Source: an uncultured Rhodobacteraceae bacterium (GTDB lineage: Bacteria; Pseudomonadota; Alphaproteobacteria; Rhodobacterales; Rhodobacteraceae). Taken from it: 64,000 bases of DNA. How positions within the stretch are numbered: position 1 is the stretch's first letter; every line of letters starts with the position of its first letter. This document shows positions 3,066 to 45,561 of the stretch, piece after piece. The translations under genes and the position numbers were made by a program. The notes below the pieces were generated by a model. The model was not told the origin of the DNA. It was given only the letters and a program-made list of their open reading frames with translations, and did no database searches. The stretch covers positions 364,654 to 428,653 of the forward strand of contig CANNFU010000004.1 of assembly GCA_947503965.1 (NCBI GenBank), written 5' to 3'.

Positions 3066-4220
3066 TCAGACCTCTGCGAACAGATCCTCTGCCCCGCGTT
3101 TGGCCAGATATTCGGCCTGGCTGATTGGTCCGGCGGAGCCGACCAACGCGCGATAGGCATCATAGCTTTCAAAGATGCGGCGACCCATATCGTCATCCTC
3201 GGCCACGCTGGCCGCCACGTCGAATGACACACGCGACAGTTCGTTCCAGACATCATCCGGCAGACGCGTCGGCTTCACACCGGATTCCGTCAAAAGCTGC
3301 ACCAGTGCGATCCCGTTATTGCCATAATAGTCGGCAGTGTGGGCGGTCAGTTCCGCCTCGGTCACGCTTTCAATCACAGCCCGGTCCACATCAGACAGGT
3401 TGTTCCAGAAATCGAGGTTCATACCAACAGCGGCCATCGTGCCGGGCTCGTGGAAGCCGGGATAGATATAGGTCGACAGCAGCTTCTGGAAGCCAAATTG
3501 CAGGTCGTTATAGGGTCCAACCCACTCGGTCGCGTCAATGGTGCCTTCGAAAAGCGCCTCAACAATGCCACCGCCGGGCAGCACAACCGCATTGGCACCC
3601 ATCCGTGCGATCACCTGACCGCCAAGGCCGGGCATCCGCATGGTCAAGCCTTCGAAATCGTCCTTGCTGGTGATTTCCTTGTTGAACCAGCCACCCATCT
3701 GAACGCCAGTGCCACCGACGGCCAGCGATTTGACGCCATATCCCGCGTTCAGCTCGTCCCACAGCGCTTGCCCACCGCCATATTTGACCCAGGCGGCCTG
3801 TTCGACCGAGGTCAGGCCCAGCGGCACAGTGGTGAAGAAATTGAAACCACGGTGCTTGCCTTGGAAGTAATACTCAGCCGAGTGATACATCTCGATCTCG
3901 CCCGCGCTGGCGGCATCGTGCACGCCTAGCGCCGGAACCAGCGAACCGGCCCAGTAGATTTCGACATTCAGGCGGCCATTGCTGGCAGTATTGATACCTT
4001 CGGCCACGCGCGCTGCACTATCGGCCAGACCACCCAGACCCGCAGGCCAGGATGTTGCCATGCGGATCGTCTGGGGCGCCCCTTGCGCGATGGCTGGGCT
4101 GGCCAGTACCGCAGCACCGGTCAGCGCCGCACCACCGCCCAAAAGGGCACGACGGCGCGACATGGGTTGGGATTTCGATTGCGTATCGGCCATCGGTGTC
4201 TCTTTCAAATCATATGTCAT
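3066..4220 (-). CDS. TRAP transporter substrate-binding protein, DctP/COG4663-type, Tat signal
   Basis: 384 aa with a twin-arginine signal SRRRALLGGGAALTGAAVLASPAIAQG. The mature domain is DctP-like periplasmic binding protein. Confidence 0.75.
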   Translation of the reverse strand: MTYDLKETPMADTQSKSQPMSRRRALLGGGAALTGAAVLASPAIAQGAPQTIRMATSWPAGLGGLADSAARVAEGINTASNGRLNVEIYWAGSLVPALGVHDAASAGEIEMYHSAEYYFQGKHRGFNFFTTVPLGLTSVEQAAWVKYGGGQALWDELNAGYGVKSLAVGGTGVQMGGWFNKEITSKDDFEGLTMRMPGLGGQVIARMGANAVVLPGGGIVEALFEGTIDATEWVGPYNDLQFGFQKLLSTYIYPGFHEPGTMAAVGMNLDFWNNLSDVDRAVIESVTEAELTAHTADYYGNNGIALVQLLTESGVKPTRLPDDVWNELSRVSFDVAASVAEDDDMGRRIFESYDAYRALVGSAGPISQAEYLAKRGAEDLFAEV

Positions 4221-26393: not shown

Positions 26394-26759
26394 ATGAGTC
26401 GTATGAAAACTATTCGCTATGCTTTTTGGGCCATCATTGGCCTTTGCCTGATCCTGATCGGACTGGCCAACCGTGACATTGTAACGGTCCGCGCCATGCC
26501 CGAAGCCCTGGGCGAGCTTTTGGGTCTGTCACCGGATGTACAGTTGCCGCTGTTTGTCGTGATCTTCCTTGGCGTTGGGGCCGGTTTGATGATCGGCTTT
26601 CTGTGGGAATGGGTGCGTGAGCACCGCATCCGGGCCGATGCGCGTGGCAAGGCGCGCGAGGTCGAGAACCTCAAGCGCGAAGTGCAACAGCTCAAAGGGG
26701 CTGCTGCTGGTGCAAAGGATGATGACGACGTTCTCGCGCTGCTCGAAAAGACCGGCTGA
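26394..26759 (+). CDS. LapA-domain (DUF1049) inner-membrane protein
   Basis: 121 aa with two TM helices and a charged C-terminal tail. It occupies the conserved position between ihfB and trpF. Confidence 0.65.
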
Positions 26760-27406
26760 TGTCCTCTGATATTCGGGTGAAGATTTGCGGTCTGCGCGAT
26801 GCAACCGCGATGCAGGCTGCCCTGGACGCGGGTGCCGCCTATGTCGGCTTCGTGTTTTTTCCGAAATCACCACGCAGTATCAGTGTTTCAGATGCCACTG
26901 TTTTGGCAGCAAAGGTGCCTGTTGGTGTGGCCAAAGTCGCGCTTGTCGTCGACCCGGACGATACGCAACTGGATGAGATTACAAACCATGTCCCGATCGA
27001 CATGATCCAACTGCATGGGTCCGAGACGCCCGAAAGGATCGCGGCAATTCAGGCCCGTTACGGTCTGCCGGTGATGAAGGCGATCGGCGTCGCGGATGCG
27101 ACGGATGTTGCGCAGATCGATACATATGCCAGGGTCGCCGACCAGATACTTATTGATGCCAAGCCGCCCAAAGATGCAGATCGGCCTGGCGGCAACGGGG
27201 CCCGGTTTGACTGGAACCTGATCGCCGGACGTCGCTGGCCGGTGCCTTGGATGCTGGCAGGCGGTTTGACACCGGAAAATGTGGCTGAAGCGGTGCGCGT
27301 TACCGGCGCGCGCCAGCTTGATCTGTCGTCAGCGGTGGAAAGTGCGCTGGGCAAGAAGGACCCCGCCTTGATCAAGGCTTTCACAGACGCTGTGCGTGCG
27401 ATTTAA
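26759..27406 (+). CDS. trpF: phosphoribosylanthranilate isomerase
   Basis: It begins [21 protein letters not shown].. and has a TIM-barrel PRAI. Its start overlaps the lapA-like stop. Confidence 0.85.
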
Positions 27407-27438: not shown

Positions 27439-27672
27439 GTGATGCATGGCGTCTCTGTTCATATCTCTCCGGAACGCTGGCTGCGTCAGATGTTTTCGGC
27501 GCAGGCCGCGCGTGATGGCGGGGTGATCCGGCGACAGGTGCAGGATGTGGAACGGCTGATCGGTCGAGATCTCTTTGAATCAGAGCTACGACGGCGCGGC
27601 TATTGCGCGGTCGAGAATGCCGGACAGTATGTTGTCTTTTGTAACGCCGAACCGCTGCGATTGATTAAATAG
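27439..27672 (+). CDS. hypothetical small protein (77 aa) inserted between trpF and trpB
   Basis: This is an ORF call only, with no recognisable domain. It is followed by a REP-like double palindrome. Confidence 0.3.
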   Translation: MMHGVSVHISPERWLRQMFSAQAARDGGVIRRQVQDVERLIGRDLFESELRRRGYCAVENAGQYVVFCNAEPLRLIK

Positions 27673-27801: not shown

Positions 27802-29028
27802 ATGGCCAACGATCTATTCAACAGCTTCATGACTGGCCCCGACGAAAAGGGCCGCTTTGGTGATTTCGGGGGCCGTTTCGTGTCGGAAACCCTGATGCCG
27901 CTGATTCTGGAGCTGGAAGAGCAATACGAACATGCCAAGACCGATGACAGTTTCTGGGCCGAGATGCACCATCTTTGGACCCATTACGTCGGCCGCCCCA
28001 GCCCGCTGTATCATGCCGAACGGCTGACCGAACATCTGGGCGGCGCCAAGATTTACCTCAAGCGCGATGAGCTGAACCACACCGGCGCACATAAGATCAA
28101 CAATGTGCTGGGCCAAATCATTCTGGCCCGCCGCATGGGCAAATCCCGGATCATCGCCGAAACAGGTGCCGGCCAACATGGCGTTGCCACGGCAACGGTC
28201 TGCGCCAAGTTCGGGTTGAAATGCGTCGTCTATATGGGCGCACATGATGTGGAACGTCAGGCCCCCAATGTTTTTCGTATGCGCCTGCTGGGGGCCGAGG
28301 TCATCCCTGTCACCTCTGGCCGTGGCACATTGAAAGACGCGATGAACGACGCGCTTCGCGACTGGGTCACCAATGTCCGCGACACGTTTTACTGCATTGG
28401 CACTGTGGCAGGCCCGCATCCCTATCCGGCGATGGTGCGCGACTTTCAGGCCATCATCGGTCAGGAAACCAAGGAACAGATGCAGGCCGCCGAAGGGCGC
28501 TTGCCAGACACGATCATCGCAGCGATTGGCGGTGGATCGAACGCTATGGGCCTGTTCTATCCGTTCCTTGACGACAAGGACGTGAACATCATCGGCGTGG
28601 AGGCTGGCGGTAAAGGCGTGAATGCCAAGATGGAGCATTGCGCCTCGCTCACCGGCGGTCGACCTGGTGTGCTGCATGGCAACCGGACCTATCTGCTGCA
28701 GGATGATGTCGGGCAAATCCTTGAAGGGTTTTCGATCTCAGCGGGGCTCGACTATCCGGGGATTGGTCCGGAACATGCATGGCTGCACGATATCGGTCGC
28801 GCGGAATACGTTGCCATCACCGATGTCGAAGCGCTCGAGGCGTTCCAGCTTTGTTGCGCACTCGAGGGTATCATTCCTGCGCTTGAGCCGTCACATGCGC
28901 TGGCGCATGTGATGAAAATCGCGCCCGATTTGCCGAAAGACCATTTGCTGGTCATGAATATGTGTGGGCGCGGCGACAAGGACATCTTCACAGTCGCCAA
29001 ACACCTCGGTTTTGAGATGACAGGTTAA
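27802..29028 (+). CDS. trpB: tryptophan synthase beta chain
   Basis: 408 aa with a PLP-binding lysine context ([11 protein letters not shown]) and the GGGSNA motif. Confidence 0.92.
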
Positions 29029-29187
29029 TTTTCTATTAATATTGGTCTAAACTTTGGTTTAGGTCCGTCGTTCATGGGTTTAATCTGGTCTGTCTAAACC
29101 CATGATCCATGGTGATCGTCGCCTCTTCTTGCGACGACCTTTGGCAATGGTTCGCATGGTGCGAATCGACAATCAAAGGAGCATGTC

Positions 29188-29661
29188 ATGAAAAAAACGC
29201 TACTTTCCACCACCGCCATCTTTGCCCTCACCGCGACCACGGGCTTTGCGCAATCGATCGCCGAACAGGTAGTCACGCAATTACAAGCCGAAGGCTACCA
29301 GCGCATCGAAGTCAAGAACGGACCCAATCAGGTCAAAGTCGAAGCAATCCGCAACGGCCGGAAGCTAGAAGTCGTTTATGACGCCGCAACAGGCGCCATT
29401 CTCGATCAAGAGGTCGAGCCCGTCGATGATGATGACGAAACATCACCCGGGGTCGAGATCTCTGACGAGGATGAAGATTTCATCGACGACGAAGATGATG
29501 ACGAAGGCGACGATGAAGATGGCGACGATGATGAAGATGATGACGAAGACAACGATGATGCCGACGACGAAGACGATGATGAAGATGATGATAACGACGA
29601 TGATGAAGATGACGGCGATGATGCCGACGACGAAGACGATGATGAAGATGACGACGAGTAA
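29188..29661 (+). CDS. secreted PepSY-domain protein with about 80-aa poly-Asp/Glu C-terminal tail (paralog 1)
   Basis: 157 aa. A signal peptide (MKKTLLSTTAIFALTATTGFAQS) is followed by a PepSY-like beta-hairpin region (QVKVEAIRNGRKLEVVYDAATGAILDQE) and then a tail that is more than 90% D/E. Confidence 0.7.
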   Translation: MKKTLLSTTAIFALTATTGFAQSIAEQVVTQLQAEGYQRIEVKNGPNQVKVEAIRNGRKLEVVYDAATGAILDQEVEPVDDDDETSPGVEISDEDEDFIDDEDDDEGDDEDGDDDEDDDEDNDDADDEDDDEDDDNDDDEDDGDDADDEDDDEDDDE

Positions 29662-29676
29662 TCGACGTGGTATGGC

Positions 29677-30129
29677 GTGGTTATGATTAAGCGAGCAATC
29701 ATATGTCTTGCCGTGGCTGGGGCGCCGTCCGATGCGGTGGCCCAGTCAGTCCAGGATCACATCGTGCGGCAGCTGCGCGATCAGGGGTTTAGCGATATAC
29801 AGCTGAACCGGACATGGCTTGGCCGTGTCCGGGTCACGGCGGAACGCAATGACCTGCGCCGTGAACTGGTCTTCAACCCTCAAACCGGTGAAATCCTGCG
29901 CGACTATTGGGGCGATGACGACGATGACGGCGGTCCACAACTGTTCAATCCGGGCAATAGCGGCTCGGGTGGTTCAGGTGGCGGGTCATCCGGTGGTGAT
30001 GACGACGAAGACGATCGCGATGATGATGATGATCGTGACGATGACGACGAAGATGATGACGATGATGAAGACGACGATGACGATGAAGACGACGATGATG
30101 AAGACGATGACGATGACGATGATGACTAA
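29677..30129 (+). CDS. secreted PepSY-domain protein with Gly/Ser linker and poly-Asp C-terminal tail (paralog 2)
   Basis: 150 aa with a signal peptide and a PepSY-like region (RVRVTAERNDLRRELVFNPQTGEILRDY). A GSGGSGGGSSGG linker precedes a tail of about 60 aa that is almost pure D/E. GTG at 29677 or ATG at 29683. Confidence 0.7.
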   Translation: MVMIKRAIICLAVAGAPSDAVAQSVQDHIVRQLRDQGFSDIQLNRTWLGRVRVTAERNDLRRELVFNPQTGEILRDYWGDDDDDGGPQLFNPGNSGSGGSGGGSSGGDDDEDDRDDDDDRDDDDEDDDDDEDDDDDEDDDDEDDDDDDDD

Positions 30130-30161
30130 CGCCGACTGATTTCAAAGGAGGCGACACCCCA

Positions 30162-30647
30162 GTGAAGCGCCAATGGCATGTCCTCGTCATTGTCTGTGTC
30201 CAGGTGCTTTGCGCCTTTTTTTTCGTTTCACAGATTCTGGCATCCATCATCGGTATCGGACCCGTCAGTTGGCAGGTCTATGAACTGATTGAATTGGGCG
30301 CAGCACTTGGGCTGCTGTTGGGTGTCGGATTGGGGTGGATTGTCTTGCGCCGCACAATGGCCCGCAATGTCGTGGTCGAGGATCAGTTACGCGTCGCGTC
30401 AGGCGCATTTCTCGACGTGATGGAGGAACGGTTCACCACCTGGGAGTTAACCCCCGCAGAACGCGACGTGGCGCTGTTCGCGATCAAAGGTATGTCAACA
30501 CAGGAAATCGCCACCCTGCGCGAGGTCAGTGAAGGCACAATCAAGGCGCAAACCAACGCGATTTATCGCAAGGCCGGTGTGTCAGGCCGCACCCAATTGC
30601 TCAGCCTGTTCATCGACGACCTGATGGCGGATGTGACGCCGGGCTAA
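30162..30647 (+). CDS. membrane-anchored LuxR-family (HTH) transcriptional regulator
   Basis: GTG start 10 nt after an AAGGAGG RBS. Two N-terminal TM helices precede a C-terminal LuxR-type HTH (LTPAERDVALFAIKGMSTQEIATLREVSEGTIKAQTNAIYRKAGV). Confidence 0.7.
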   Translation: MKRQWHVLVIVCVQVLCAFFFVSQILASIIGIGPVSWQVYELIELGAALGLLLGVGLGWIVLRRTMARNVVVEDQLRVASGAFLDVMEERFTTWELTPAERDVALFAIKGMSTQEIATLREVSEGTIKAQTNAIYRKAGVSGRTQLLSLFIDDLMADVTPG

Positions 30648-30962: not shown

Positions 30963-31039
30963 TTCGATGTAGCTCATCTGGATAGAGCAATAGACTACGA
31001 ATCTATAGGGAGCGGGTTCGAATCCCGCCATTGAAACCA
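30963..31039 (+). tRNA. tRNA-Arg (anticodon ACG), CCA encoded
   Basis: Manual cloverleaf from the sequence. The acceptor stem TTCGATG/CATTGAA has one G-U pair. D arm GCTC-atctggata-GAGC. Anticodon arm ATAGA-ctACGaa-TCTAT. Variable loop AGGGA. T arm GCGGG-ttcgaat-CCCGC. Discriminator A, then CCA. Confidence 0.85.
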
Positions 31040-31430: not shown

Positions 31431-32567
31431 ATGATGTTGCGGATACTTGATACACTGACTGGCCACCGGCGGCTGGTTCTGACCGAAAACGACCGGGCCA
31501 TCCTGACGCGCAAAGGGCGGATCGTCGATCTGCTGGGCGCAGGCGAACACCGGATCAAACGCAACGATGTGGTCGAGGCACATAACCTGACCTCGGCTTT
31601 CTTCACCGGCGGAAACGTTGACACGCTTTTGCGGGACGCACCTGATCTTGTGGCGACACATCTGGTCGAGGTTCGGACGTGCGCGACCGAGGTTGCTTTG
31701 GTGGCGCGGGACGGGCGGCTGATGACAGCGCTTGCGCCTGACAGCCGGACGCATCTTTGGGCAGATGCGGGGCCTTTCGATATCACGCGGCACGATGTAG
31801 CGGCTGATGTGCGGGTGCCCGGTGATCTGGCCAAGCGGCTGGTCCGGGGGCGGTTGGTTAGCCTACTCACCTCGGTCGAGGTGCCCGAAGGCCATGTGGG
31901 CGTCATGACCCTTGATGGGACAAACCCCACCGTGCTGGACCCCGGTTTGCACACGTTCTGGAATGTCGGACCCAAAGTGGCGGTCAAACTGGTCGACACG
32001 CGGCTCCGGTCCCATGACGTGACCGGGCACGAGATCCTGACACGTGACCGGGTAACGCTGCGGGTAAACCTTGCGGCAGACTTCCGGGTCGTGGACCCTG
32101 TGACAGCCGTCACAAAGGTCCGGGATTTCGAGGAGGCCTTGCACCGGGCCTTGGGTCTGGCCTTCCGGCGGACACTAGGGGCGCTGACGCTTGATGCGCT
32201 GTTGGCCGACAAGGTCGCCGTTGACGAAGGGGCCGCAGATGCGGTGCGGACGGAAATGGCCGGTCTTGGCGTCGAAGTGGGTGCGATCGCGTTGAAAGAC
32301 GTGATCCTGCCCGGTGAGATGCGGGACATTCTGACAGCGGTCGTCGCGGCTGAAAAGGAGGCCGAAGCCAACGTCATCCGGCGGCGGGAAGAAACGAACG
32401 CAACGCGGTCGCTTCTGAACACCGCCAAGGTGATGGCCGAGAACCCTGTGATGCTGCGGCTGAAAGAGCTGGAAGCGTTGGAGGTGATCGCCGGCAAGGT
32501 CGAGCGGTTGACCGTGCATAACGGCACCGCGGGTCTGTTGGGTGATATCGCCAAACTGCGGGACTAA
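31431..32567 (+). CDS. SPFH/band-7 (slipin-like) domain protein with an uncharacterized ~150-aa N-terminal domain
   Basis: 378 aa. The C-terminal two-thirds shows the SPFH pattern (ALTLDALLADKVAVDEGAADAVRTEMAGLGVEVGAIALKDVILPGEMRDILTAVVAAEKEAEANVIRRREE). No N-terminal TM is obvious. It lies in a locally very GC-rich stretch. Confidence 0.65.
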   Translation: MMLRILDTLTGHRRLVLTENDRAILTRKGRIVDLLGAGEHRIKRNDVVEAHNLTSAFFTGGNVDTLLRDAPDLVATHLVEVRTCATEVALVARDGRLMTALAPDSRTHLWADAGPFDITRHDVAADVRVPGDLAKRLVRGRLVSLLTSVEVPEGHVGVMTLDGTNPTVLDPGLHTFWNVGPKVAVKLVDTRLRSHDVTGHEILTRDRVTLRVNLAADFRVVDPVTAVTKVRDFEEALHRALGLAFRRTLGALTLDALLADKVAVDEGAADAVRTEMAGLGVEVGAIALKDVILPGEMRDILTAVVAAEKEAEANVIRRREETNATRSLLNTAKVMAENPVMLRLKELEALEVIAGKVERLTVHNGTAGLLGDIAKLRD

Positions 32568-33511: not shown

Positions 33512-34255
33512 CTACACGTGATCCAACGTCACAGGCTCGGGACGACCGACACGACACAGATCACAGATGCGCACGGCCTCGGTAATGCCCATCAGCGCCA
33601 GTTCACGGAAACTGGGCAAAACGAACGGGTCCGCGCGGGCATAATCGACCTCATACCCGATATCCTCGAACGCGGCGACCGACAGACGGCTGAGCGGGCG
33701 GTCATCGCCCGACAGGAAGCCGGTCAGCAGTTCATCGCCAAAGATCAGCTCGCGCCAATGTCCTTCGCGGGTGCCTGCCCCGCCGGTATTGGACAAAGGC
33801 ACCGCATCCCCGCCCGCCGCATCAAGAGCTGCATATTCCCGGATTGAGGCCGTACCGGTGAACCGCGGGTCCATACTGCCGGTCCCACGGATCAACCCCT
33901 TGCGCGACCAAAGCGTACCAAAGCCCAGAACATGCGCCATTTCATGCAGGATCACATCTTCAAAGCTGCCACCGGCCTCAAGATTCGCCACATCTGCGTC
34001 GTCGAATTGCATGATCCCGGCAACGGGTAAATCAGTATCAGGGCGCAGGATCGTGGGGCCTGCCTGCCCCAAAACGCCGCTCTCGCCGTCGATATCCTCG
34101 ATCATCACGTCAATGCGCACCCCGGTCAGCACATCACCATCCACATCAATCGGCGCAAACCCGGTATTTATGACATTGTCCCAACGCGCCGCCGCCCGAT
34201 CAAAGACGCCGCGACGCCCGGCTGACAATTCTGTGACGTAGTTCAGGGTGATCAT
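33512..34255 (-). CDS. zinc metallopeptidase, HEXXH (leishmanolysin/M8-like motif HEMAHVLGFG)
   Basis: 247 aa. The HEMAHVLGFG motif is read directly from the sequence. There is no obvious signal peptide. Confidence 0.55.
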   Translation of the reverse strand: MITLNYVTELSAGRRGVFDRAAARWDNVINTGFAPIDVDGDVLTGVRIDVMIEDIDGESGVLGQAGPTILRPDTDLPVAGIMQFDDADVANLEAGGSFEDVILHEMAHVLGFGTLWSRKGLIRGTGSMDPRFTGTASIREYAALDAAGGDAVPLSNTGGAGTREGHWRELIFGDELLTGFLSGDDRPLSRLSVAAFEDIGYEVDYARADPFVLPSFRELALMGITEAVRICDLCRVGRPEPVTLDHV

Positions 34256-34977: not shown

Positions 34978-35937
34978 ATGCTAGACTTCAACAGATGGAA
35001 AAGATCGATTACTTTTCTTGAAGGCCCGACACGGGAATGCGCAAACCCCTACGATCAGGATGCGACCGAACATGTGCGCACAGCGCGTATCACTGGGCCG
35101 TGGCATCGCAATATGCCAGCGTATCTCGAAAAACACGCGGCCAAAGGCTTGGCATTTTCGTTCAAGGATGGATTTCGGTGCACAAGCTATGATTTCTTTG
35201 CAGAATTGAGGTTCATCGAAGCCTTCAATGTGCCGACTTACAACCCCGACTTCGATTTCGGTGACATGCCGATTTCCCTTCTGTCAGGGCTTAGGAGGAT
35301 CAAAGCATCAGGGAATGTGAAACAGACCATCGATCTTTCGACGCTACCGCACCTGCAGTCCTGTACGATGAAATGGCAGAAGGCGACTGAAAGCGTGTTT
35401 GAAGCCAAGTGTCTGAAACGCTTGCAGATCCGCAGCCTGAGCAAGCAAGGCGCAGAGGGTCTGGCAAACCTCACATCCCTCGAAAATCTGGAGGTGTCGC
35501 ATAGCGGCATTCATTCCTTCGCGCCAATCAGCGCATTGACCCAGCTAAGGCGACTGTCGCTATCGGTTTGCCGTGGCCTCGAAAACCTTGATGGGATTGA
35601 GGCGCTGCAGAACCTGCGCTGTCTGCATCTGGACGAGGTGCATCATGTGTCTTCTTTTGATTGTTTGACGCCGCTGAAGAACCTAGAAGTCCTGACAATT
35701 GCGGATGCGCGCGACATCGAATCCGTTGCGCCGCTGAAAGAACTACCAAATCTTAGGGCGCTCTGGATCGCGGGCACAAAGACCAGGATTGTCGATGGCG
35801 ACCTGACCCCGTTGACGCACCTACCAAAACTGGCGATGCTGACGCTGGGAAACAAGCGGCACTACAGCCACCAGGTGATCAAGAAGTGGAGTTGGGATAA
35901 CCTCGAAAAACCCGACACATTGCTTGAGAAGGTCTAA
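34978..35937 (+). CDS. leucine-rich repeat (LRR) domain protein
   Basis: 319 aa with about 7 LRR units (LxxLxxLxLxx[CN]xxL: LANLTSLENLEVSHSGIHSFAPISALTQLRRLSLSVCRGLENLDGIEALQNLRCLHLDEV...). GC content (about 48%) is markedly below its surroundings. Confidence 0.65.
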   Translation: MLDFNRWKRSITFLEGPTRECANPYDQDATEHVRTARITGPWHRNMPAYLEKHAAKGLAFSFKDGFRCTSYDFFAELRFIEAFNVPTYNPDFDFGDMPISLLSGLRRIKASGNVKQTIDLSTLPHLQSCTMKWQKATESVFEAKCLKRLQIRSLSKQGAEGLANLTSLENLEVSHSGIHSFAPISALTQLRRLSLSVCRGLENLDGIEALQNLRCLHLDEVHHVSSFDCLTPLKNLEVLTIADARDIESVAPLKELPNLRALWIAGTKTRIVDGDLTPLTHLPKLAMLTLGNKRHYSHQVIKKWSWDNLEKPDTLLEKV

Positions 35938-44291: not shown

Positions 44292-45488
44292 TCAAACAGC
44301 GCGTTTCAGCGCTTCCACCAGATCGGTTTGCTCCCAGCTGAACCCGCCATCCGCATCCGGTTCGCGTCCGAAATGGCCGTAGGCCGCGGTACGTTCATAG
44401 ATCGGTTTGTTCAGGTGCAGATGCTGCCGGATACCGCGCGGGGTCAGGTCCATGACCTGCGCGATCGCGCGTTCAATCGCCTCTGGATCAACCTCGCCAG
44501 TTTCATGCGTGTTGGCATAGATCGACAAAGGCTTGGCGACCCCAATCGCATAGCTCAGCTGGATGGTGCAGCGTTCGGCCATACCAGCGGCAACGACGTT
44601 CTTGGCCAGATAACGCGCGGCATAGGCGGCAGAGCGGTCCACCTTGGTCGGGTCCTTGCCGGAGAAAGCACCACCACCATGCGGGGCGGCACCGCCATAG
44701 GTGTCCACGATAATCTTGCGCCCGGTCAGGCCCGCATCCCCGTCAGGGCCGCCGATAACGAATGTCCCGGTGGGGTTCACCCACCATTCCGTATTCGCCG
44801 TGATCAGACCATCAGGCAGCACTTCGCGGATATAAGGTTCGACAATGGCGCGGATATCGGCGCTGGTCTGGCTTTCCAGTTCGTGCTGCGTGGATAGCAC
44901 AATTGACGTCACCTCGACCGGTTTGCCACCGGCATAGCGCAATGACACCTGACTTTTGGCGTCGGGGCGCAATGTGGGCTGTTCGCCGGATTTGCGGACC
45001 TCGGCCAGACGGCGCAGGATCGCATGGGCGTACTGGATCGGGGCCGGCATCAGCGCGTCGGTCTCGGTCGTGGCATAGCCAAACATGATGCCCTGATCAC
45101 CGGCACCTTCGTCCTTGTCCTCGGCTGCATTCACGCCCTGCGCGATATGTGCAGATTGTTCGTGCAACAGGTTCGTCACCTTGCATGTCGCATGGTGGAA
45201 CTTGTCCTGCTCATACCCGATATCTTTGATGCAGGCGCGCGCGATGTCATCAACGCGGGCCATATAATCCTTGAGCTTTGTCTGGTCTGAAAGACCAACC
45301 TCACCCCCGATCACGACCCGGTTTGTTGTGGCAAATGTTTCGCAGGCAACCCGTGCTTCGGGTTCTTCGGCTAGAAATGCGTCCAGCACCGCGTCAGAGA
45401 TACGGTCGCAGACCTTATCTGGGTGGCCTTCGGACACGGATTCCGAAGTGAAAATGTAGTCTTGTCGTGCCATGGGGATGTGCTCCAA
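44292..45488 (-). CDS. metK: S-adenosylmethionine synthetase
   Basis: It begins ...[31 protein letters not shown]. The likely start is MARQ at about 45473. Confidence 0.95.
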
Positions 45489-45561
45489 TAAAATTAACTG
45501 CCACGTCAGGAAGCCGTTGTGACAGAACCGACCCCGGCTCTATGAGGTCAGATCACCAAGG

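Follow-up and report, generated by a model that had tools for sequence, protein, structure and literature searches.

Three co-oriented genes at positions 29188-30647 of the window (the whole 64-kb stretch of DNA that was analysed) belong to an operon that is conserved in Rhodobacterales, and we tentatively suggest, with slightly less than even confidence, that this operon encodes a three-part envelope signalling module in which PepSY proteins serve as co-sensors for a membrane regulator. Across the order the three genes, or at a minimum the g2-type and the regulator genes, stay together.

Organization of the locus

The ORF check of the window recovered the three genes at the coordinates at which the earlier note had placed them, and the strong AAGGAGG ribosome-binding site that it had claimed for the third gene is present as well. 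The features of the coding region are as follows:

29188-29661, + strand, g1, predicted secreted PepSY_2-domain protein of 157 aa
29419-29658, + strand, polyacidic tail of g1, 80 aa, 78% Asp+Glu, net charge about -62
29677-30129, + strand, g2, predicted secreted, divergent PepSY-like protein of 150 aa
29914-30126, + strand, tail of g2, 71 aa, 65% Asp+Glu, net charge about -44, 11-Gly/5-Ser linker included
30145-30151, + strand, AAGGAGG ribosome-binding site of g3, read straight from the sequence, 10 nt before the g3 start
30162-30647, + strand, g3, membrane-anchored LuxR/GerE-type regulator of 161 aa with a GTG start

The gaps between the genes are short, as claimed; by stop and start coordinates they measure 15 nt (g1-g2) and 32 nt (g2-g3) and not 16 and 33 bp. 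Judged against the orthologs, the ATG at 29683 is the likelier start of g2. A consensus promoter and terminator scan of the locus gave nothing informative, and it predicted no internal terminator in the operon. Co-transcription of g1, g2 and g3 is supported indirectly by the sequence because the gaps are short, no internal terminator is predicted and a single conserved element lies upstream. Within ~6 kb on either side of the operon we found no gene for a histidine kinase or for a receiver-domain protein, and the products of all three genes are annotated only as 'hypothetical' or as a generic 'helix-turn-helix regulator'.

Conservation of the operon in Rhodobacterales

Usable sequence upstream of the regulator gene was available for 78 species-level genomes of Rhodobacterales. 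In 77 of these loci a PepSY ORF ends <200 nt 5' of the regulator gene (median distance 32 nt), at least two such ORFs are present in 54 loci, and a g2-type gene lies immediately 5' of the regulator gene in 76 of the 78. An exception is one Thalassovita genome, in which an unrelated secreted ORF replaces the PepSY gene. The linkage of PepSY and regulator genes also extends throughout the metagenome loci, down to a regulator identity of 44%, and this arrangement is far beyond chance. The operon is carried by more than 500 genomes and the family hardly occurs outside one order; a scan of a wider collection together with a profile search for relatives of the regulator returned mostly Rhodobacterales-type orthologs with 44-68% identity to g3. 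The trpB gene is syntenic upstream in 61 of 80 loci, and given this synteny part of the conserved adjacency could reflect vertical inheritance within one order.

It could be argued that the genes have no functional link at all, having stayed side by side downstream of trpFB through inheritance, and that the acidic tails arose by neutral expansion of slippage-prone GAY codon repeats. The frequent presence of trpB upstream and the limitation of the family to a single order would fit this scenario, as would tails that consist of imperfect codon repeats and vary in length between strains. However, the PepSY-regulator pair persists where trpB is absent or where other genes lie upstream, while downstream synteny is lost, and adjacency in 77 of 78 loci with a median gap of 32 nt is accompanied by one shared conserved control element. 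Moreover, neutral drift would not maintain tails in both paralogs of essentially every genome, with 219 of 221 being net negative. We regard an absence of any functional link as very remote.

The PepSY proteins g1 and g2

From their sequences, g1 and g2 are predicted to be small Sec-exported proteins of the PepSY type with the following parts:

g1, aa 1-21, signal peptide
g1, aa ~22-77, PepSY domain
g1, following the domain, short conserved linker motif SPGVEI...EDFIDD
g1, from there to aa 157, Asp/Glu tail
g2, aa 1-22, signal peptide
g2, aa ~23-79, PepSY-like domain
g2, following the domain, GPQLFNP motif, Gly/Ser linker and poly-Asp/Glu tail

In both proteins the N-terminus has a K/R segment and a hydrophobic stretch as well as an A-x-A|Q motif, the latter being conserved in orthologs, and neither contains a lipobox cysteine.

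A match to a profile of the PepSY superfamily (Pfam PF13670, PF03413), on which the earlier note had made its reading depend, is present in g1, which scores 26.5-28.3 bits against Pfam PepSY_2 (PF13670) and passes the gathering score of 24.3; 25 of 37 g1-type orthologs match the same profile (E<0.01). Taken alone, g2 reaches 12 bits, which is below the gathering score, and 5 of 37 g2-type orthologs match a PepSY profile. Nevertheless, g2 is, by sequence comparison, a paralog of g1 whose domain is homologous to a genuine PepSY_2 domain, because the two proteins match each other in BLASTP (E 9e-9) and because the alignments of g1-type and g2-type orthologs match in a profile-profile comparison (hhalign, probability 99.4%, E 9.6e-22, 82 columns). 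The proposal that the first two genes encode paralogous PepSY-type proteins with signal peptides is upheld by these data. The AF2 model of g2 consists of one helix and four strands with pLDDT >90, and ~12 residues of the g2-type domain are invariant or near-invariant across Rhodobacterales, those invariant in g2 being T46, L48, G49, R50, R52, R62, E63, P68, G71, L74, R75 and D76.

The vibriolysin propeptide and YpeB are among weak structural neighbours, and the Pfam family itself is annotated as 'peptidase propeptide and YpeB domain'; the PepSY domain initially became known as a propeptide module that inhibits proteases. These similarities are consistent with a mechanism in which membrane proteolysis releases or destroys the HTH of g3 and the PepSY proteins protect or expose g3. 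The layout of a membrane-tethered transcription factor with a co-encoded periplasmic partner would likewise suit such a mechanism, which resembles the protection of TcpP by TcpH and of ToxR by ToxS. Gating by proteolysis nevertheless appears to us highly unlikely.

The regulator g3

The earlier description of the third gene product as a LuxR-family HTH protein with two transmembrane helices agrees with our analysis: g3 scores 33.8 bits against GerE (PF00196; cut-off 23.5), sequence analysis finds two hydrophobic segments, and the AF2 model places helices at 3-30 and 37-93 ahead of an HTH of four helices at 98-158. The predicted parts of g3 are as follows:

aa ~3-30, TM1
aa 31-36, periplasmic turn
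aa ~37-62, TM2, running on as a cytoplasmic helix to aa 93
aa 96-158, four-helix HTH

In the model TM2 extends as a cytoplasmic helix of ~30 residues into the LuxR/GerE domain, and this helix carries an ASGAF motif. The matches of g3 to PDB sequences include the DNA-binding domains of VraR and GerE (E ~1e-3). The N-terminal 95 residues consist of two hydrophobic helices and a linker and match no Pfam family, and no more than 194 relatives of the N-terminal membrane module (clustered at 50% identity) occur among 1.84 billion representatives. A periplasmic loop, which the earlier note had proposed as an interaction target, is present; it is, however, merely ~6-10 residues long. This turn, with the conserved residues G31, P34, W37, E41 and E44, is among the best-conserved N-terminal parts of the regulator.

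Two family assignments were rejected. Response_reg has no match in g3, which accordingly lacks the N-terminal receiver domain of a NarL/FixJ response regulator. The score against the NCBIfam LIC13292 family (NF047608) is 60.6 bits compared with a cut-off of 200, and the match covers the C-terminal 75 residues only.

A conserved element upstream of the operon

The region upstream of g1 contains a conserved element that, to judge from its sequence, is probably the operator of the operon. Its parts are as follows:

29047-29112, + strand, conserved control region, candidate operator, plausibly that of g3 (autoregulation)
29047-29062, + strand, IR1, CTAAAC-TTTG-GTTTAG, first inverted repeat of the element
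29078-29082, + strand, third half-site, GTTTA
29095-29099, + strand, fourth half-site, TAAAC
29108-29112, + strand, conserved CATGG/AATGG box

The four half-sites are arranged as TAAAC-N4-GTTTA-N16-GTTTA-N12-TAAAC and lie ~135 nt upstream of g1; across related loci the median distance of the element to the start of the first gene is ~139 nt. In 160 related loci there are 106-107 distinct instances with an exact TAAAC-N4-GTTTA core, and the 21-nt and 12-nt spacings within the element are practically invariant. Almost always the element is single and located 5' of the first PepSY gene, also in loci without trpB, and a second copy precedes additional g2-like PepSY paralogs that lack an adjacent regulator gene. 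The window holds one match to the element only. The second half of the element, GTTTA-N12-TAAAC, does not fit a single canonical dimer.

A function of the element at the RNA level, i.e. as a trpB terminator, as leader hairpins or in alternative pairings, was rejected as the main explanation because the core is conserved in sequence without compensatory change, pairing in the flanks (26-58% Watson-Crick) is at most positions close to what shuffled sequences would give, there is no U-tract behind the element, loci without trpB have the element too and Rfam gives no match to it even at E<=1. By itself the element sequence of the window folds well (z -4.95) because it is palindromic.

The acidic tails

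As the earlier note had observed, the C-termini of both PepSY proteins are rich in Asp and Glu. The coding sequence of the g1 tail consists of imperfect GAY/GAR codon repeats; in g2 the Gly/Ser linker that had been described is followed by a ~43-aa run of almost pure Asp/Glu. Orthologs across the order have such tails too, as the reading in the earlier note had likewise required, the charge being net negative in 219 of 221 (mean 41% Asp, median charge -31), and tails are kept in both paralogs in essentially every genome with a minimum of 30-44 aa. Their length and sequence are hypervariable across orthologs, even between near-identical strains, and length is polymorphic among metagenome contigs in which the regulator and the g1 domain are identical. 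In some lineages the tails are weakly acidic or Gly/Ser/Asn-rich, and in some they are His- or Met/His-rich. Because of this hypervariability and of the weakly acidic lineages, the precise function of the tails is not strongly constrained.

We consider it plausible from the composition of the tails that the module might sense Ca2+/Mg2+ or polycations. This possibility is circumstantially supported by the Asp-rich composition, by the His-rich variants and by the more acidic tails in marine genera; the median tail content of Asp+Glu is 0.50 in marine-named and 0.26 in non-marine genera (p=4e-5, with statistics that ignore phylogeny). Profile searches of g1-g3 gave no match to calsequestrin, EF-hand or other calcium-binding profiles. 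In calsequestrin and in Asp-rich biomineralisation proteins, long, Asp-dominated low-complexity regions serve as low-affinity, high-capacity binders of Ca2+, and the likeness of these proteins to the tails is compositional only and does not reflect homology.

The tailed PepSY proteins could also be the output of the system rather than part of its input. In this scenario, g3 alone senses a membrane or intramembrane cue and switches on PepSY-polyAsp proteins as a periplasmic cation buffer that does not feed back on g3; the buffer might store Ca2+/Mg2+, prevent mineral precipitation or trap metals, polyamines or cationic peptides. The high capacity and low specificity suggested by a content of 41% Asp, a length that drifts freely and the greater acidity in marine genera are all expected of a bulk buffer. 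Similarly, an element located 5' of the PepSY genes, including the extra paralogs without a regulator, is expected of regulon targets, and the modelled regulator has almost no periplasmic surface to contact. A pure buffer, however, could do without a folded domain such as the g2-type domain, in which ~12 residues are invariant or nearly so, and without near-universal adjacency to a regulator, and the periplasmic turn of g3 is among the best-conserved N-terminal parts of that protein. A buffer without feedback is in our opinion somewhat unlikely. The buffer and co-sensor functions are not mutually exclusive because autoregulated operons with their own accessory sensor, as in the case of dbfQRS, look alike in sequence.

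A model for the PepSY proteins as co-sensors

Combining the genomic linkage with the predicted domain organization, we suggest a model in which (i) g3 would stay in the membrane and bind DNA as a dimer, its most likely target being the TAAAC-N4-GTTTA repeat 5' of its own operon, which would give rise to autoregulation, (ii) the PepSY proteins, g2-type proteins above all, would be periplasmic co-sensors that dock on the periplasmic turn and the membrane face of g3 (G31-P34-W37-E41-E44) and in that way shift its activity, and (iii) cations (Ca2+/Mg2+, transition metals or polycations) would be captured by the Asp-rich tails, which would thereby couple the cation status of the envelope to the availability of the PepSY domain for the regulator. 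Because it has no periplasmic domain, g3 would be unable to sense periplasmic cues alone. Invariant charged and aromatic residues on the g2-type domain and on the turn of g3 are candidate contact surfaces. We favor this co-sensor model because of the linkage in 77 of 78 loci, the conserved surfaces, the single control element, the lack of an alternative transducer nearby and the precedents discussed below. What counts against docking is that the turn of g3 comprises ~6-10 residues compared with the folded sensor domain of DbfS. The trpB synteny, the hypervariable tails, the second half of the upstream element and the Thalassovita genome likewise weigh against the model.

An extended version of the co-sensor model, which we consider unlikely, would make the tails themselves the sensor. 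They would function as a periplasmic polyelectrolyte gauge whose collapse or expansion, driven by divalent cations, transition metals or polycations, gates docking of the PepSY domains on the minimal periplasmic turn of the two-TM LuxR regulator, with no phosphorelay being involved. This gauge would report the ionic state of the envelope in essentially all Rhodobacterales and be tuned to the habitat by tail composition.

Relation to known systems

Of the systems described so far, the PepSY-plus-two-component modules DbfQ-DbfRS and BqsPQ-BqsRS come closest. In these, small periplasmic PepSY proteins are encoded beside a membrane signal transducer and control it: DbfQ binds and controls the kinase DbfS in Vibrio cholerae, and BqsS is accompanied by two PepSY proteins, the pair PA2658/PA2659 being encoded upstream of bqsRS in Pseudomonas aeruginosa (PMC12714742). 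Transcription of dbfQRS is under autoregulation and reacts to envelope perturbation (PMC12714742). As in these systems, the Rhodobacterales operon encodes small, predicted Sec-exported single-domain PepSY proteins just 5' of a membrane transducer with which they are presumably co-transcribed, and the two tandem paralogs parallel PA2658/PA2659. Unlike DbfRS and BqsRS, a single 161-aa LuxR-type protein with two TM helices takes the place of a kinase with a periplasmic sensor domain and a response regulator, and no phosphorelay is involved. Also, the Asp-rich tails of 50-100 residues set these PepSY proteins apart from DbfQ, PA2658 and PA2659 as reported (PMC12714742).

Our literature search found no description of this cluster, of PepSY proteins with acidic tails, of PepSY proteins in roseobacters or of LuxR regulators with few TM helices. 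Thus, the claim that this is not a described system stands for the cluster and for the acidic-tail PepSY proteins; it does not stand for the general principle of PepSY co-sensors, which has already been described (PMC12714742), or for membrane-integral LuxR regulators, which are known (PMC9734109). The published survey of PepSY neighbourhoods covered kinases and response regulators only (PMC12714742). The polyanionic tails on PepSY proteins are new, and the cluster appears to be a variant, as yet uncharacterised, of an envelope-sensing mode that was described recently. If the PepSY proteins control g3, then the accessory-sensor principle applies beyond two-component systems and covers a minimal one-component regulator tethered to the membrane, and this would show how a transcription factor without a periplasmic domain can read the periplasm. 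The tails would be a rare case of a disordered bacterial polyanion used in the periplasm, with a possible link to the handling of seawater calcium and magnesium. Rhodobacterales include the roseobacters, which are among the most abundant marine heterotrophs, as well as model phototrophs and denitrifiers; an operon that is present in nearly every sampled species yet generically annotated represents a sizeable blind spot, and the conserved candidate operator provides an immediate handle for reporters and regulon mapping.

ToxS and TcpH are the co-encoded periplasmic partners of ToxR and TcpP, and like the Rhodobacterales trio both systems pair an inner-membrane DNA-binding protein with a co-encoded exported accessory protein. 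The folds of ToxS and TcpH are unrelated to those of the PepSY proteins. ToxR and TcpP exemplify the concept of the transmembrane transcription regulator (TTR) (PMC11856585). A ToxR-like identity of g3 was rejected: proteins of the ToxR type begin with an OmpR-type winged helix, cross the membrane once and end in a periplasmic domain, whereas g3 has the reverse topology with a TM hairpin followed by a LuxR-type HTH and no periplasmic domain.

A C-terminal LuxR/GerE HTH on an N-terminal integral-membrane module is shared with the LuxR-type regulators DadR, CadR and HcdR of Coriobacteriia, which are membrane-integral one-component activators and respond to small molecules (PMC9734109). Membership of g3 in this group was also rejected, since DadR-type regulators have 10-12 TM helices and no accessory PepSY proteins whereas g3 has two hydrophobic helices only and adjacent PepSY genes; outside the HTH there is no detectable sequence relationship.

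The upstream element resembles the operator of ComA, in which a tetrahelical HTH dimer recognizes TTGCGG-N4-CCGCAA (6-4-6) plus downstream elements (PMC4797271), in that a 5-4-5 inverted repeat with a 4-nt spacer is followed by extra half-sites at fixed spacing. It differs from the ComA operator in its half-sites (TAAAC/GTTTA) and in the second pair, which is everted with a 12-nt spacer, and binding by g3 is a prediction.

Finally, extracytoplasmic PepSY proteins have been tied to cations before, as in the case of the metal-binding protein LanP (PMC9988556) and of UipA, which is implicated in cation binding (cited in PMC12714742). In the Rhodobacterales proteins a similar connection is suggested by the composition of the tails. 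LanP and UipA bind metals via their PepSY domains, of which there are two per protein, whereas here a ligand-rich disordered tail is attached to a single domain.

Organization and conservation of the gene cluster

The three co-oriented genes that the earlier note had proposed are present as ORFs at 29188-29661, 29677-30129 and 30162-30647, all on the + strand, with intergenic gaps of 15 nt (g1-g2) and 32 nt (g2-g3) and with AAGGAGG 10 nt before the GTG start of g3.

Features of the cluster and its flanks (positions in the window)
26759-27406, trpF, upstream of the cluster
27802-29028, trpB, upstream of the cluster
29047-29112, whole element TAAAC-N4-GTTTA-N16-GTTTA-N12-TAAAC with CATGG/AATGG box, between trpB and g1
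29047-29062, inverted repeat CTAAAC-TTTG-GTTTAG, 19 nt after the trpB stop codon
29078, third half-site, GTTTA
29095, fourth half-site, TAAAC
29188-29661, +, g1, PepSY-type gene with acidic tail, ORF of 157 aa
29677-30129, +, g2, PepSY-type gene with acidic tail, ORF of 150 aa
30162-30647, +, g3, two-TM LuxR-type regulator gene, ORF of 161 aa, GTG start
30963-31039, +, tRNA-Arg(ACG), 316 nt after g3

A scan for the regulator using one genome per species gave at least 542 loci, the best 80 of which were analysed further and are all from Rhodobacterales. In 77 of the 78 loci with usable upstream sequence the regulator has a co-directional PepSY ORF whose end lies <200 nt ahead of it (median distance 32 nt); this ORF is an ortholog of g2 (g2-type) in 76 of the 77, and two or more PepSY ORFs are present in 54 of the 78. 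The sole exception among the 78 genomes is Thalassovita taeanensis (L063), in which an unrelated 119-aa signal-peptide ORF (3472-3831) takes the place of the PepSY gene, after the conserved element and before the regulator. The same PepSY-regulator pattern is seen in 80 metagenome loci wherever upstream sequence is present, down to 44-49% regulator identity. Because trpB lies upstream of the cluster in 61/80 loci, vertical synteny contributes to the conserved adjacency; the PepSY-regulator pair is also retained in loci with different upstream genes, and the downstream neighbour of the regulator is kept solely in the closest relatives. That the three genes have no functional link is, therefore, the less likely reading.

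The membrane-bound regulator

g3 scores 33.8 bits against GerE/LuxR (cut-off 23.5) and gives weak matches to the VraR and GerE DNA-binding domains in the PDB; by these matches it belongs to the LuxR/GerE HTH family. No Pfam family matches its N-terminal 95 residues and, in contrast to response regulators, no receiver domain was found in it. A TM hairpin plus HTH is apparent from hydropathy and from an AF2 model (mean pLDDT 82), in agreement with the two-TM LuxR-family regulator originally described: helix 3-30 is followed by a six-residue turn, a continuous helix 37-93 and a four-helix HTH, so that the predicted second TM segment passes without a break into a cytoplasmic linker. As basic residues flank the cytoplasmic helix ends (MKRQ..., ...LRRTMAR), the protein fits a putative N-in membrane hairpin with a cytoplasmic HTH. 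Among the N-terminal positions, those best conserved in orthologs include Q14 of TM1, an ASGAF motif within the linker, and G31, P34, W37, E41 and E44 in the periplasmic turn and at the start of TM2. The family of this membrane module is small: in a search of 1.84 billion representatives it matches, at E<=1e-3, only 194 clusters formed at 50% identity. All relatives inspected consist of two TM segments, linker and HTH.

Two PepSY paralogs with predicted export signals

g1 passes the gathering score of Pfam PepSY_2 (PF13670; 24.3 bits) with 26.5 bits for the whole protein and 28 bits for the N-terminal part, and 25/37 g1-type orthologs match this family. g2 alone reaches 12 bits, under the gathering score, and only 5/37 g2-type orthologs match. 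The paralogy of g1 and g2 is nevertheless solid, as judged from BLASTP (E 9e-9) and from profile-profile comparison of the g1-type and g2-type alignments (99.4% probability, E 1e-21, 82 columns). For the N-terminal part of g2, AF2 predicts residues 30-80 with pLDDT >90 and in the topology of PepSY, one helix and then four strands; fold searches do not set PepSY structures apart from small alpha/beta folds of other kinds. The leaders of both families are basic and hydrophobic, end with the conserved motif A-x-A|Q and have no lipobox cysteine; judged from sequence, the proteins are most simply regarded as Sec-exported, soluble and periplasmic. Profile and pairwise scores place g1 and g2 in the PepSY superfamily, and the earlier claim of two exported PepSY paralogs holds, for g1 directly and for g2 by way of g1.

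Acidic tails

The g1 tail has 80 residues, 78% of them Asp+Glu, and a charge of ~-62; that of g2 has 71 residues with a charge of ~-44 and contains the Gly/Ser linker reported before, counted here as 11 Gly and 5 Ser, ahead of an almost pure Asp/Glu terminal run. Both are encoded by imperfect GAY/GAR codon repeats. The acidic character is kept in orthologs: all but two of 221 orthologous tails are net negative (median -31), with a mean composition of 41.5% Asp, 16.8% Gly, 9.4% Ser and 6.7% Glu and a hydrophobic fraction of 5%. Sequence and length are hypervariable (poly-D, DDE, DDDR, DDS and G/S-rich variants, with His-rich tails or (DNHDTMG)n repeats in some lineages). The (DNHDTMG)n repeat forms the g2-type tail of a divergent relative (L143, 2857-3369; regulator 44% identical), and g1-type tails with 8-13% His occur in several other lineages (L049, L061, L037, L074); such compositions are typical of transition-metal ligands rather than of plain polyanions. 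Among metagenome contigs L161-L166 (g1 genes ~1112-1953), in which the regulator and the g1 domain are identical, the g1 tail contains anywhere from ~17 to ~65 acidic residues and also differs in Asp versus Glu content; the cause is either slippage of the repeats between strains or their collapse during metagenome assembly. The motifs linking domain and tail, SPGV-x-I...DF (g1-type) and P-x-hydrophobic-hydrophobic-(D/N)-P (g2-type), each occur in at least a substantial minority of the orthologs of their own paralog and almost never in those of the other. Median D+E of g2-type tails is 0.50 in genera that we class as marine and 0.26 in those that we class as freshwater or soil (Mann-Whitney p=4e-5, without phylogenetic correction).

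A conserved element upstream of g1

The element between trpB and g1, which the earlier note does not mention, is conserved across the order. Its exact core TAAAC-N4-GTTTA is present in 106-107 distinct instances among 160 related loci, nearly always in one copy per locus and upstream of the first PepSY gene, also where trpB is missing; the 64-kb window holds no second match. The half-sites keep fixed distances: from the second to the third it is exactly 21 nt in 53 instances, and from the third to the fourth 12 nt in 40/41, with a (C/A)AT(G/A)G box ~8 nt beyond the fourth; from the element centre to the start of the first gene the median distance is 139 nt. One metagenome locus (L082, 1935-2056) has the inverted repeat three times, at a spacing of 53 nt, upstream of the first PepSY gene. 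In five loci a second copy of the core precedes an extra g2-like paralog.

Extra g2-like paralogs with their own element (local coordinates)
L060, 868 and 1058-1834
L068, 656 and 1534-2085
L072, 733 and 1520-1951
L106, 282 and 1084-1578
L126, 384 and 1021-1524

These paralogs lie upstream of the main cluster and have non-acidic tails rich in Ala/Thr/Ser/Pro/Gly (D+E 0.03-0.10). That they carry their own copy suggests a small regulon of PepSY genes.

The intergenic RNA of the window folds well (z -4.95), as expected of any palindrome. An RNA-structure reading was rejected: in the comparison of loci, pairing between the flanks does not exceed that of shuffled controls at most positions. Because of this and because Rfam gives no match, the element is probably a protein-binding DNA operator of the g1-g2-g3 operon. 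The single conserved element before g1, the short gaps and the lack of a predicted internal terminator support a common transcript for the three genes. At its promoters the tetrahelical HTH protein ComA recognises a short inverted repeat, with 4 nt between the arms, and additional half-sites downstream (PMC4797271). Since the element has this layout, g3 is its obvious, but unproven, candidate binder.

A model for periplasmic signalling

The best-supported model is that of a signalling module, with exported PepSY proteins that would inform a membrane-tethered LuxR-type regulator, which in turn would control its own operon: (i) g3, without a periplasmic domain, would receive periplasmic information from the co-encoded exported PepSY proteins, (ii) the PepSY domains would contact the periplasmic turn of g3, (iii) the tails would bind cations, and (iv) g3 would bind the upstream element and thereby autoregulate the operon. 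Cation binding is suggested by the dominance of Asp, the His- and Met/His-rich variants, the habitat trend and the metal binding known in other PepSY proteins (PMC9988556). Alternatively, and as the main rival, the PepSY-polyAsp proteins would simply be a regulated output that buffers periplasmic cations; the loose constraint on the tails agrees with a buffer, whereas the strongly conserved g2 domain and the near-universal adjacency of g2 to the regulator argue against it. Co-sensor and buffer functions can coexist, and protease gating is less likely than either.

The earlier note held that this is not a described system. A literature search found no published description of the cluster, the products of which are named 'hypothetical protein' and 'helix-turn-helix transcriptional regulator' in databases, but the underlying principle of PepSY accessory sensors is no longer unprecedented. 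A recent precedent is DbfQ, a small PepSY protein of the periplasm whose gene lies upstream of dbfRS; it binds the kinase DbfS at the sensor domain and sets the output of this kinase, in a pathway that responds to outer-membrane damage. PepSY genes are >60-fold enriched beside two-component genes, and two precede bqsRS in P. aeruginosa (PMC12714742). Unlike DbfQRS-type modules, the cluster lacks a kinase and a response regulator, and no histidine kinase or response regulator was found within ~6 kb of it; by analogy, its working would come closest to that of a DbfQRS module reduced to a one-component transducer. Transmembrane transcription regulators are a known general class (PMC11856585), as are membrane-integral LuxR regulators that activate transcription (PMC9734109); g3 differs from ToxR-type regulators in topology and HTH type and fails the defining feature of the 12-TM LuxR family. 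The system is order-wide, its polyanionic feature is unusual, and the putative operator makes it easy to test.

Genomic surroundings

A 77-aa ORF between trpF and trpB (27439-27672, +) has no Pfam match and a similar ORF in 9/80 related loci. Synteny with related genomes mostly stops at tRNA-Arg(ACG), since the Band_7 gene at 31431-32567 is common to just 2/80 loci. A few kb downstream of the cluster are a leishmanolysin-like ORF (33512-34255, -; Peptidase_M8, E 8.5e-10) and a leucine-rich-repeat protein ORF (34978-35937, +), the adjacency of which to the cluster is not kept in other genomes; genes for both kinds of protein are uncommon in bacteria. A SAM/SAH riboswitch (45481-45528, -; Rfam RF01727, 60.9 bits) adjoins the start of a 398-aa ORF (44292-45488, -). 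From this riboswitch and the nearest g3 homologs (Cognatiyoonia, Yoonia and Loktanella, 80-89% identity), the window is assigned to a Yoonia-like member of Rhodobacterales.
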